From a candidate division WOR-3 bacterium (GTDB taxonomy: Bacteria > Hydrothermota > Hydrothermia > Hydrothermales > Hydrothermaceae): a stretch of DNA of 34,802 nt. Shown one piece after another: positions 21,001 through 24,000 of the stretch. The DNA is taken from contig JBDRZD010000005.1 in the NCBI GenBank assembly GCA_039803745.1, positions 1 to 34,802 of the forward strand. Reading direction: 5' to 3'. The position numbers are program-made. The number at the start of each line of letters is the position of its first letter. The stretch's first letter is position 1.

Positions 21001-24000
21001 AAAAATTTTTTATTTATTGTATAATACTCAGTGAAAATCCCTATTATCACACCCACAAAGATACCTGAAAAGATTGGCCAGAAATTCGTTATGTTTCCTT
21101 TGTATAAAAAATAAACAGTTAAAAAGGAAAAAATTACAAAAAATAAAGCAGAAAATAAAACTGAATTAAGAAGTGCTTTTGAGGGTTCTCCCTTTGCTGT
21201 TTTTATCAAAAATATACCCAAAATTGAAGAAATAATTCCGAGTGCAGGAGTAAATATTGAAAGAAGCATTCCTTCCATGCTTCCCATACTTCCTGCAATT
21301 ATAAGTCCAGAAATTATTGAACCTACAAAAGATTCATAGAGGTCAGCACCCATTCCTGCAACATCACCAACGTTATCCCCAACATTGTCCGCAATCACTG
21401 CAGGATTTCTTGGATCGTCTTCCGGAATCCCTGCTTCAACTTTACCAACTAAATCCGCACCAACATCTGCAGCCTTTGTATAAATTCCGCCTCCAACCCT
21501 TGCAAAAAGAGCAACAGTTGAAGCACCCATTGAAAAGCCAGCGAGTATAGAAGCAGCCTCCACTGCCTTTAATATAGGAGTTCCTTCTTTCGAAAGATTT
21601 GAAAATATCAGGAAAAGAAGAGAGATCCCTAAAACACCAAGAGAAACAATCATTATCCCCATCACAGAACCACCAAAAAATGCAAGGGAAAGTGCTTGAT
21701 TAAAACCTTTCTTTGCTGCCTGAGCGGTTCTTGTATTTGCTCGTGTAGAAATTTTCATTCCAAACCACGCTGAACCAAGAGAGAAAGAAGCACCGATTAC
21801 ATAAGAGATACAGGTTGCAAGGGCAAATTTAATTGATTTTGTTAAAAGGGATAAAAATAAAAGTATTATAACAAATATAACAAAGAAAAAAATTGTGATA
21901 AATTCTCTTTTCAGGAACGCCATCGCACCTTCATGAACTGCATCTGAAATTTTCATCATTTCCTCTGTTCCTGGATCCTGTCGCATAACATACCTTGCAA
22001 TAAGAATTGAATAAACAATTGAAAGCAAACTTATAAAAAGTGATACGAATATTAACACATCATTCATGTTCATCCTCTCTAAAACTGTTTATAAAATTCA
22101 TTGCTTTATTTACTCCTTCATTAAAAAGCACCTTAACACCTTTTTTTAAAAAAGGGAAAAGAGTTTCAAATAAAAAATTTTTTTCCTCTTCTTTAAGCTG
22201 GGATAGAACATATTTCTTCAAAGGTTTTTCTCTTCCTATCCCTATTTTCAATCTCAGGAAATTTTCACTTTGAAGATAATAAATAATTGAAGAAATCCCC
22301 TTATGACCCCCTGCACCTCCCTTTATTTTCAATTTTGGCTTACCAAAAGGAAGAGCAGCATCATCATGAACCACTAAAATTTCTTCATTTTTTATCATAA
22401 ATTTTTTTTTAAATCATTTAATACTTTGCCACTTTCATTCATATATAAATTTGGTATTATAAGAAATCCATACTCTGTCTCTTTATAAAAAAAATCACCT
22501 TCCCCCGGTAAAAAATTGCTCTCACCAAGATAAAGAACAAAAAGTTTGCCTACATTATGTCTTGTAAACTCATAAATTTTTCCAGGATTCCCAAGCCCAA
22601 TTATATAAAGCATTATTCCTCCTCTTTTTCTTCCTCCTCTTTCTTTTCTTCAGAAGGAACTTCTTCCATTACTACTTTTTCAGAAGGTATTTCTGCAGCC
22701 TTTTTAGGTGAAAGAACAGTACATACTGTCTCTTCCGGGTTTTCCACAATATGGACTCCTTCTGGAAGCTTTAAATCCTTTATATGAATAGATTCACCTA
22801 TTCGGAGTTTACTCACATCAACTTCAATATGCCCAGGGATTTTTGACGGAATTGCTCTTATATTTACCTCCCTTTTAAGATGCTCCAAGGTGCCACCCAG
22901 TTTTAAACCTTCAGGAATGCCGATAAGAACAACAGGAATTGAAACAGTTATCATTTCCTTTTCGTGTAAAATCTGAAAATCAGCATGGATTGGAAAACCC
23001 ATTATAAAATCTCTCTGAAGTTCCTTAAGGATACATTTATAATTCTGGCCATTTATTTCAAGATCAATCAGAACCGTTTCCTTTTTTACTTCTTTTAAAA
23101 ACTTCTGAAAATCTTTTGCATTTATTTTTATATGAATATTCTTCTCGTGGGCACCATACATTTCACCTGTTATAAAACCTTTTCTTCTTAATCTCCTTGC
23201 TTCATTTGTTCCAATTTTTTCTCTTATTTCACCCTTTAATTTATATATTTTCATATTCCTCCCCTTTAAATGAATAAAGCACTAATACTTCTTTCCTCGT
23301 GAATTCTTTTGATTGCTTCAGCAATTAAACCTGAAACAGTTAAAATTTCTAATTTTCTCATCTTTTTATGTTCAGGAATTGGTATTGTGTCTGTAACTAT
23401 TATTCTATCAATTGGGCTATTTTCAAGCAAAGAAACAGCATCACCCGATAAAATTGCATGAGTTGCACATACCCATATTGCTTTCGCACCAAGTTCTTTA
23501 AGTTTTTGAGAAGCAAAATAAATTGTTCCACCAGTATCTATTATATCATCAACAATTATAATATTCTTATCCTCAACATTACCTATCACATGCATAACTT
23601 CTGACATATTTGGAGCAGGTCTTCTCTTGTCAACAACTGCAAGAGGTAAATCACCAAGTCTCTTTGCAAATGCTGTTGCCCTATTTGTTCCACCAACATC
23701 AGGAGAAACAATAGAAAAAAATCTTGCATCCAAAGGCCCAAGATATTCCTTAAACACGGGAAAGGCATAAATATTATCTAAAGGAATATCAAAGAATCCC
23801 TGGATCTGATCAGAATGAAGGTCAATCGTTACAACTCTATCAACCCCTGCTGTTTGAATCAGGTTTGCTATAAGTTTTGCAGAAATTGGAACCCTTGGCC
23901 TATCCTTTCTATCCTGCCTTGCATAACCGAAATAAGGAATAATTGCTGTTATTCTCTTTGCAGAGGCTCTTTTAGCAGCATCTATCAAAAGTAAAAGTTC

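Follow-up and report, generated by a model that had tools for sequence, protein, structure and literature searches.

Gene expression that relies on a one-base slip at a homopolymer has precedents, and for pth, the gene for peptidyl-tRNA hydrolase (Pth), a poly(A) frameshift has already been published: it lies in the ant endosymbiont Blochmannia vafer (Williams & Wernegreen, 2010, BMC Genomics 11:687; PMC3017870), whose authors considered the gene functional via transcriptional slippage and found no accelerated evolution in it. Slippage on a T/U run also fuses mxiEa and mxiEb of Shigella flexneri (PMC1088944), and a sense A9 run in dnaX of Thermus thermophilus gives transcripts with a variable number of A (Larsen et al., 2000; PMC1088944, PMC3711429). 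In the dnaX gene of E. coli, the heptamer A_AAA_AAG is flanked by an upstream Shine-Dalgarno sequence and a downstream hairpin (PMC3711429). The Blochmannia paper is the only report of pth recoding that our literature search found. The word "pth" does not occur in the main text and two of the three supplementary files of Antonov 2013, and neither "pth" nor "hydrolase" occurs in the first 300,000 characters of Atkins 2016. No paper listed by our search pairs Hydrothermae, WOR-3, or TA06 with frameshifting or slippage.

Here we describe a pth gene that is broken by one base in the family Hydrothermaceae. The window (the whole stretch of 34,802 nucleotides that was analysed) belongs to a genome of 1.67 Mb (93% complete), and the sequencing runs that contain the pth stretch are labelled hot springs metagenome. 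The 19 runs listed for 21950-22750 include none of RNA. The gene lies on the minus strand as two ORFs, 22395..22613 (72 aa) and 22060..22398 (112 aa), whose frames are offset by −1. The parts of the locus and its neighbours are as follows.

23266..24201, minus strand: prs, ribose-phosphate pyrophosphokinase, first in the prs-ctc-pth row (Pfam PF13793, PF14572, PF00156)
22613..23254, minus strand: ribosomal protein L25/Ctc (TL5), upstream of pth (Pfam PF01386, PF14693)
22395..22613, minus strand: N-terminal segment of pth, frame 0 (ATG 22613-22611, 72 codons, stop TGA 22397-22395)
22487..22494, minus strand: in-frame T8 run, GAT TTT TTT TAT (the "DFFY" site), the site of the T9/T10 frame break in the clade f16
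22402..22410, minus strand: A9 run (sense), the frame junction of pth and candidate slip site
22060..22410, minus strand: C-terminal segment of pth, −1 frame (AAA AAA AAA TTT ATG ... stop TGA 22062-22060)
22395..22398, minus strand: ATGA, the frame-0 stop TGA overlapping an ATG of the −1 frame, which would allow termination-reinitiation
20010..22073, minus strand: membrane H+-pyrophosphatase, downstream of pth (Pfam PF03030, 859.8 bits)

The ATG of pth overlaps the TAA of the L25/Ctc gene (TAATG), and the end of pth and the pyrophosphatase ATG (22073) overlap by 14 bases. At the junction, the sense strand reads GAT TTA AAA AAA AAT TTA TGA in frame 0 and AAA AAA AAA TTT ATG ATA in the −1 frame. 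The frame-0 phase of the run is TT[A AAA AAA] AAT, which places an in-phase A_AAA_AAA heptamer at 22410-22404 with two more A after it.

The two pieces make up one Pth. The N-terminal piece matches positions 2-74 of the 183 positions of PF01195 (47.9 bits), and the −1 frame, open from 22413, matches positions 75-183 (96.4 bits; the curated cut-off is 27), so that both are above the cut-off and jointly cover positions 2-183; the 112-aa ORF by itself matches positions 79-183. Against the solved Pth chain 7y52_A, the N-terminal piece aligns to residues 5-78 and the C-terminal piece to residues 82-175, and the three residues in between correspond to the three lysines of the slipped product. The C-terminal piece also aligns to residues 81-191 of 2pth_A. 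If the mRNA gained one A, or if the ribosome slipped by −1, the product would be colinear with intact Pth, reading ..L K K K F M I K.. across the junction. Counted from the M in MNE up to DD, it would have 28 codons, as do five intact genes of the sister family. A genome-wide survey's note had described the two offset ORFs meeting at the A9 run, the Pfam spans of 2-74 and 79-183, and the colinearity, and all three hold.

The catalytic motifs are split over the two halves: the N-terminal piece carries GLGNPG, TRHNVG, and YMNESG, and the C-terminal piece carries HDD and GGHKG. In E. coli Pth, the catalytic residues are His20 and Asp93, and the substrate-binding residues are Asn10, Asn68, and Asn114 (PMC3488237). 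GLGNPG, TRHNVG, MNESG, and DD align with the counterpart motifs of the solved chains (E. coli numbering is assigned by motif). The GGHNG site reads GGHKG in this order of bacteria, the intact genes of the sister family included. We found neither a second PF01195 locus nor a PTH2 gene (PF01981) in the host genome at its 93% completeness.

The break is a fixed trait of the family. All five family genomes have two Pth matches in two frames with the A9 run at the junction, and the sister family has a single intact pth ORF in five of six genomes and no match in the sixth. (All of the genomes compared are metagenome bins, 67-95% complete and 1.4-2.1 Mb in size.) Both halves of pth are under purifying selection in the family: dN/dS is 0.06-0.28 for the N-terminal piece and 0.09-0.26 for the C-terminal piece, with 36-78% of synonymous sites differing. 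Nine public protein clusters contain the N-terminal piece (69-97% identical), and all of them read on through the run and end in (D/E)LKKN... As AAA makes up 83% of the lysine codons in the family's pth genes (76/92), conservation of nine A within the family is by itself weak evidence: 15/15 AAA would arise by chance with p ~0.06, assuming that the five genomes are independent, which they are not. The survey's note also held that four independent studies confirm the length of the run; contigs from three other studies do bridge it without an indel, but the fourth contig begins just 9 bases from the run. These bridging sequences have a depth of 3.7-9.4, and as contigs they do not reveal minority run lengths.

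A frame break in pth is also found in f16, a TA06-labelled, order-level clade of the same phylum. There, pth is broken by −1 in all 14 genomes, which represent five genera, at a run of T9 (12 genomes) or T10 (2 genomes) that is located elsewhere in the gene than the A9 site. This is evidently a second, independent origin of the break. It has been kept even though synonymous sites in f16 pth are saturated (median pS 0.70-0.81). Outside the run, 106 of the phenylalanine codons are TTT and 32 are TTC. The phase of the site is TT[T TTT TTT], with a zero-frame heptamer in place; the upstream frame ends 1, 4, 8, 12, or 18 codons past the run, and the N-terminal piece has about 46 residues. No conserved start codon was found near the junction among the f16 genomes. 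A second lesion in pth is absent from all 5 + 14 genomes. In the f16 genome G091, we found no further frame break among 25 distinct runs of at least 9 that were examined (from about 100 long runs and 129 pattern matches). One break candidate in that genome, L080, was rejected as antisense noise over two real genes.

In the host genome, homopolymer counts collapse at nine: there are 2856 runs of 7, 702 of 8, 41 of 9 (A9/T9), and none of 10 or more. The counts at nine and above agree with the survey's note, and the collapse fits the nine-base slippage threshold of Baranov 2005 (PMC1088944). The note was wrong, however, that pth holds the only 9-run at a frame break: on another contig (C81:3812-3820), an A9 run with an in-phase heptamer breaks a gene unrelated to pth in the same −1 direction. 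This break is kept in five genomes of two families, and with A10 instead of A9 (in the genome G001) the gene is in frame. Thus, 2 of the 41 nine-base runs are frame breaks, and 25 others lie in frame within ORFs. All three independent breaks (the A9 run in pth, the f16 run in pth, and the C81 gene) need one more base in the RNA or a −1 shift by the ribosome. Another run, C26:21671-21679, was rejected as a break: it sits in a leader ahead of a Shine-Dalgarno sequence and a GTG start. A geometric scan at A7/T7 and A8/T8 gave 85 and 18 candidates, nearly all of them ordinary gene junctions (MKK.. starts), and was uninformative.

We propose that the Pth enzyme of these bacteria is made through slippage-dependent recoding, transcriptional or ribosomal, and we consider this probable. 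The survey's note had suggested a conserved recoding of this kind (a ribosomal −1 slip or a polymerase-added A), and the proposal is strengthened because the break is present in 5/5 genomes with purifying selection on both halves, because nine protein clusters all end in (D/E)LKKN.., and because f16 broke its pth independently. The C81 break, the correction shared by all three breaks, and the collapse of run counts at nine also speak for slippage at 9-runs in general. In this proposal, pth would be a live gene that is held out of frame, on purpose or through long tolerance, with a DNA run that is one A short. Full-length Pth would come only from the fraction of expression events with a one-base correction at the A9 run. 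Most likely, RNA polymerase would slip on the nine rA:dT pairs and add a tenth A, so that the mRNA reads straight through; a ribosomal −1 slip on the in-phase A_AAA_AAA, which would yield an identical protein, may play a part too. Without a slip, expression would give the 72-residue fragment, for which we expect no function. What the sequences show is the frame break, its conservation, the selection on both halves, the colinearity of the corrected product, and no second pth or PTH2 in the host genome; slippage itself, its level, and its frequency we infer.

At which level would the slip occur? As every 9-run contains an in-phase slippery heptamer, the sequence cannot tell polymerase from ribosome. 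We lean, tentatively, towards recoding that is mainly transcriptional, for three reasons. First, the runs are 9-10 bases long and never 7-8, though a ribosomal site needs only 7. Second, we found no downstream structure and no specific Shine-Dalgarno-like stimulator. In the 70 nt downstream of the run, folding gave z-scores of −2.5 to −0.1 in the five family genomes and −2.0 to +1.6 in the 14 f16 genomes, and the alifold consensus folds of the two clades reached just −2.3 and −1.5 kcal/mol, which bears out the survey's statement that no structure is conserved. We found no Shine-Dalgarno-like stimulator that is specific to the broken pth genes in either clade. (A purine-rich GGnAArGGn before the T run was considered and rejected: it encodes the G-K-G motif, and intact Pth genes have this motif too.) Third, in E. 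coli reporters, A9 cassettes gave a 40% frame change compared to 10% for A7 (PMC3711429).

A purely translational event, in which the mRNA keeps its A9 and a share of the ribosomes moves back by one base on A_AAA_AAA or slides along the lysine codons (and, in f16, does so on U_UUU_UUU), seems unlikely to us, although it deserves serious consideration. Both clades, and the second gene as well, have the heptamer in the right phase, and the product would be identical to that from an added A. Also, A_AAA_AAA is among the known ribosomal shift sites (PMC3711429), and ribosomes slide on iterated AAA codons (PMC4363877). Yet besides the length of the runs and the lack of a stimulator in either clade, the genome's avoidance of runs longer than nine fits a problem at the level of the polymerase. 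In terms of the features expected of −1 ribosomal frameshifting of the dnaX type, pth has the zero-frame heptamer but showed no stimulatory element, while of those expected of transcriptional slippage, it has an A/T homopolymer of at least 8-9 bases at the junction, conservation, and selection on the downstream frame.

Another possibility, which we consider quite improbable, is that Pth is an obligate two-piece enzyme, with the 72- and 112-residue pieces made separately and assembled non-covalently, the second piece arising through reinitiation at the ATG that follows the run. The survey's note had pointed to this ATG, which we find 1-3 codons past the run in each of the five family genomes. 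In three of them the stop and start overlap as ATGA; in the other two (G004 and G001), the sequence is ATGG, and the upstream frame continues for 10 and 26 codons beyond the ATG. Furthermore, the ATG after the run lacks a Shine-Dalgarno sequence, while the starts of pth and of the pyrophosphatase have one. The two-piece alternative is also weakened by f16, which has no conserved start near the junction, variable stops, and an N-terminal piece of only about 46 residues. Nor would it explain why the junction is always a homopolymer of 9-10 bases or why the C81 gene is in frame exactly at A10, and it would put the catalytic His and Asn on a different piece of a single-domain fold than the Asp.

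There is only a very slight chance that pth is dead or dying, with its function covered otherwise after a one-base deletion in the homopolymer. Homopolymers are hot spots for indels, and as the bins are incomplete, a second hydrolase could be unassembled. However, the low dN/dS on both halves extends across saturated synonymous divergence, no second lesion has arisen in 19 genomes, no second pth and no PTH2 was found in the host genome, and a whole family and, independently of it, an entire order have retained the break. Least probable of all is that the true run is A10 or a mixture of A9 and A10 (replication slippage or phase variation) of which the assemblies give the shorter form: the independent contigs are of low depth, and contigs hide minority variants, but the length is equal in five species-level genomes and in the contigs of three further studies, the break recurs in 14 f16 genomes, the 25 other 9-runs are in frame, A10 and A11 runs do assemble elsewhere (A10 in the second gene of G001), and most of a population could not carry an essential gene in its off state.

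If recoding is the right explanation, then a core translation-factor gene would be stably expressed via a one-base slip, in non-endosymbionts and over family- to order-level time spans. That pth gained such a site independently in two clades of one phylum, and also in Blochmannia, raises the question of whether low or slippage-coupled expression of Pth brings an advantage or whether pth is merely very tolerant of reduced dosage. A speculative reading, to which we give little credence, is that the slip site acts as a feedback sensor for Pth, much like prfB, the gene for RF2, does for termination. A shortage of Pth would let peptidyl-tRNA accumulate and free tRNA drop; ribosomes would then pause for longer at the run's AAA codons (UUU in f16) and slip to −1 more often, and more slipping would yield more full-length Pth. 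In E. coli, tRNA-Lys was reported to be limiting (Heurgue-Hamard 1996, cited in PMC9973355), but later work questioned that. Feedback, if true, would explain why homopolymer breaks arose in pth on at least three independent occasions (in the family Hydrothermaceae, in the TA06-labelled order, and in Blochmannia). There is also a practical consequence. In both clades, annotation pipelines will report pth as a pseudogene or as a pair of fragments, and so an essential function will be scored as missing.

How does this locus compare to the known systems? What is new here is the order-level break in the pth of f16 and the second conserved A9 break in the host genome. The findings also lend further support to nine A or T as a working slippage threshold in AT-rich thermophile genomes. 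In Blochmannia vafer, too, pth is disrupted by one indel within a poly(A)/poly(T) tract (PMC3017870). There, however, 8 genes of a single species are affected in this way, pth among them, the frameshift is absent from two sister species, and the genome is tiny and drifting (PMC3017870), whereas our genomes are from hot-spring bacteria of 1.4-2.1 Mb, the break is fixed in a family (5/5) and independently in an order (14/14), and just two nine-base runs of the host genome are breaks. More generally, pth shares with the slippage-rescued frameshifts of Buchnera and Blochmannia the single poly(A)/poly(T) indel in an otherwise intact conserved gene, but not the setting of a reduced, drift-dominated genome with many tracts and many affected genes: here, a genome of 1.67 Mb has 41 runs and 2 breaks.

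The likeness to mxiE of S. flexneri is that slippage is needed for the longer, functional product (PMC1088944). But mxiE is a regulator for which slippage was shown experimentally, while pth is an essential housekeeping enzyme that is known here from DNA sequence. With dnaX of E. coli, pth shares the A-rich, in-phase heptamer and the −1 direction; it differs in that no stimulators were found, the run is 9 rather than 7 bases long, and the shifted product would be the main product instead of an extra one. Finally, dnaX of T. thermophilus is, like pth, a gene of a thermophile with nine A on the sense strand. In that gene, the templated length gives the full protein and slippage gives a shorter one, and both are useful (PMC1088944, PMC3711429). 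In pth, the roles would be reversed: a transcript of templated length encodes a fragment, and the only useful product would require slippage.

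In the window, pth (the gene for peptidyl-tRNA hydrolase) is split over two open reading frames, with the remainder of the gene in the −1 frame relative to the start codon. The gene, its junction and its neighbours are as follows:

23266-24201, minus strand: prs
22613-23254, minus strand: gene for a L25/Ctc ribosomal protein, the 5' neighbour of pth
22613-22395, minus strand: frame 0 of pth (the N-piece), with an ATG at 22613, 72 codons, and a TGA at 22397-22395
22402-22410, minus strand: run of nine A (sense strand) at the pth junction
22410-22060, minus strand: −1 frame of pth (the C-piece), with a TGA at 22062-22060
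20010-22073, minus strand: gene for a membrane pyrophosphatase, the 3' neighbour of pth

In the sense direction, the junction reads GAT TTA AAA AAA AAT TTA TGA in frame 0 and AAA AAA AAA TTT ATG ATA in the −1 frame. At 22613 the start codon of pth shares bases with the stop codon of the L25/Ctc gene (TAATG), and at its other end (22060-22073) pth runs 14 bases into the beginning of the pyrophosphatase gene. This tight packing suggests translational coupling along the row.

Both pieces match the Pfam family of peptidyl-tRNA hydrolases (PF01195) above the cut-off; of the 183 profile positions, the N-piece covers 2-74 and the open −1 frame 75-183. They also align to a single solved Pth chain (7y52_A, residues 5-78 and 82-175), and the 3-residue gap between them corresponds to the three lysines of the product that an extra A or a −1 slip would give. 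The MNE-to-DD distance in this corrected product is 28 codons, as it is in five intact genes from the sister family. (The C-piece has GGHKG, at about 22300-22315, minus strand, where GGHNG is conserved; by motif, this is the site of Asn114 of E. coli Pth. The lysine is found throughout the order, in broken and intact genes alike, and the second clade described below retains the asparagine.)

In a search of the order, all five genomes of the window's family (Hydrothermaceae) had two PF01195 matches in two frames; in the sister family, pth is a single unbroken ORF of 201-214 codons in five of six genomes, and the remaining genome had no match. The five broken genes have exactly nine A at the same position, with diverged flanking codons, and contigs from three other studies (sequencing runs X9, X11, and X14) bridge the run without an indel. 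(A fourth contig begins 9 bases from it.) The 72-residue N-piece matched nine clusters of public proteins (69-97% identity, 72-95 residues), and in every one of them the run is translated as (D/E)LKKN. Taken alone, the retention of nine A across the family carries limited weight because AAA accounts for 76 of the 92 lysine codons in these genes. Across pairs of family genomes, 36-78% of synonymous sites in the pth pieces differ, and dN/dS lay between 0.06 and 0.28 in 10 comparisons of the N-piece and between 0.09 and 0.26 in 8 comparisons of the C-piece (for which 2 further pairs were saturated), so purifying selection acts on both halves. The window's genome (G000), which is 93% complete, has a single pth locus, and a search of it for PTH2 found none. 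On the comparison of these genes, we consider the A9 junction of pth, which is real and conserved, to be, quite probably, a site of slippage-dependent recoding in an essential gene.

A second break of pth lies elsewhere in the phylum. PF01195 matched 146 of 151 sampled genomes. Split matches were confined to two groups: the window's family, of which the sample had 3 genomes, and f16, the sole family of its order, with five genera, in which 14 of 14 genomes are affected. (A record identical to one f16 genome is labelled 'candidate division TA06 bacterium'.) In f16, the frames join at a run of T at the G-K-G-x-F-F-F site, with the downstream part in the −1 frame in 14/14. Of these genomes, 12 have T9; the other 2 have T10, with the additional T supplied by the last position of the preceding TCT codon. 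Synonymous sites are saturated (median pS of 0.81 and 0.70 versus pN of 0.36). All 42 phenylalanine codons within the run are TTT, as compared to 106 TTT versus 32 TTC elsewhere in these genes and 7 versus 7 in the only other all-phenylalanine column. The upstream frame ends 1, 4, 8, 12 or 18 codons past the run. This break is independent of the one in the window's family. The homologous site in the window's pth is an in-frame T8 run in the N-piece (22487-22494, minus strand, GAT TTT TTT TAT), one base below slippery length.

The genome-wide survey's note had held that pth was the only nine-base run at a frame break in G000, but an A9 run on another contig also breaks a gene:

C81:3111-4699 (L030/L031), outside the window: second broken gene, with its run at C81:3812-3820

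The run is phased GTA AAA AAA AAC, identically to TTA AAA AAA AAT in pth. Before it comes an ORF of 244 codons whose start resembles a signal peptide; a further 292 codons follow in the −1 frame, and there is no start codon close to where the two meet. The gene (roughly 548 codons) had no significant Pfam match. G000, G002, and G003 from the window's family share this A9 break with G006 and G007 from the sister family. The homologue in G001 has A10 and is one ORF of 549 codons, and the homologue in G010, with A9 and an additional T upstream of it, is one ORF of 548 codons. So, the in-frame state is exactly the one that a further A would produce, and the assemblies report A10 where it is present. 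Identity to the G000 product is at odds with genome taxonomy (L033-L037): 84-75% for G010, G007, and G006 from the sister family, 66% for G003 from the same genus, and 49% for G001. This could reflect paralogy, transfer, or bin contamination (8% in G010).

The G+C content of G000 is 29.6%, and its A/T runs number 7576 at length 6, 2856 at length 7, 702 at length 8, 41 at length 9, and 0 at 10 or more. This sharp drop is consistent with selection against slippery runs. Of the nine-base runs, 25/41 lie within a single long frame, 14/41 are near ORF ends or intergenic, and 2/41 (pth and C81) are at frame breaks. The f16 genome G091, unlike G000, carries runs of 10 and 11; among 25 distinct long runs examined there, from 129 pattern matches, no further break was found.

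All three independent breaks require the identical correction, which would be either an additional base in the transcript or a ribosome that moves back one base. Sequence alone does not separate the two because any nine-base run holds an in-phase slippery heptamer. We lean towards slippage by RNA polymerase, for three reasons. First, the runs are always 9-10 bases and never 7-8, and seven are enough for a ribosomal slip. Second, neither clade appears to have the usual stimulators: across 19 genomes of both clades, we found no downstream structure (z of −2.5 to +1.6; consensus folds of only −2.3 and −1.5 kcal/mol) and no specific upstream Shine-Dalgarno-like element. Third, G000 avoids runs longer than nine, and nine is the length at which, in many bacteria, genomes were found to bear the mark of selection against slippage (Baranov et al., 2005, PMC1088944). 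In E. coli, A11, A9, and A7 cassettes gave frame changes of 63%, 40%, and 10% (Antonov et al., 2013, PMC3711429), so A9 could plausibly yield useful amounts of product. Because ribosomal sliding on AAA runs is documented (PMC4363877), a mixed mechanism is possible.

Scarce Pth might also deplete tRNA pools and thereby increase frameshifting, in a feedback loop (PMC9973355 offers a lead). This seems improbable: it depends wholly on the ribosomal route, and a like site in the unrelated C81 gene argues for a general property of nine-base runs in these organisms. Also improbable is a two-piece Pth, translated separately by restarting at an ATG past the run: in its favour, all five family genomes have that ATG, and in three it overlaps the frame-0 stop as ATGA, but the overlap is missing in the other two, no Shine-Dalgarno sequence precedes the ATG in the window's pth, the 14 f16 genomes have no conserved start codon near their junction, and the homopolymer at every junction would go unexplained.

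For slippage-dependent recoding of pth, we found no published report in these lineages in the literature we searched, including the main text and two of three supplements of Antonov et al. (2013) and the opening 300,000 characters of Atkins (2016). A homopolymer frameshift in pth is, as such, already known: in Blochmannia vafer, pth is one of eight genes with a frameshift in a poly(A) or poly(T) tract, and transcriptional slippage was proposed to rescue them (PMC3017870). In contrast, the bacteria considered here are from hot springs and have genomes of 1.4-2.1 Mb, the breaks are rare (2 of the 41 nine-base runs in G000), and conservation reaches across a family and an order. The breaks in f16 and in the C81 gene are new here. 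The closest mechanistic models are the A9 run of Thermus dnaX and Shigella mxiE, whose longer product needs slippage (PMC1088944).
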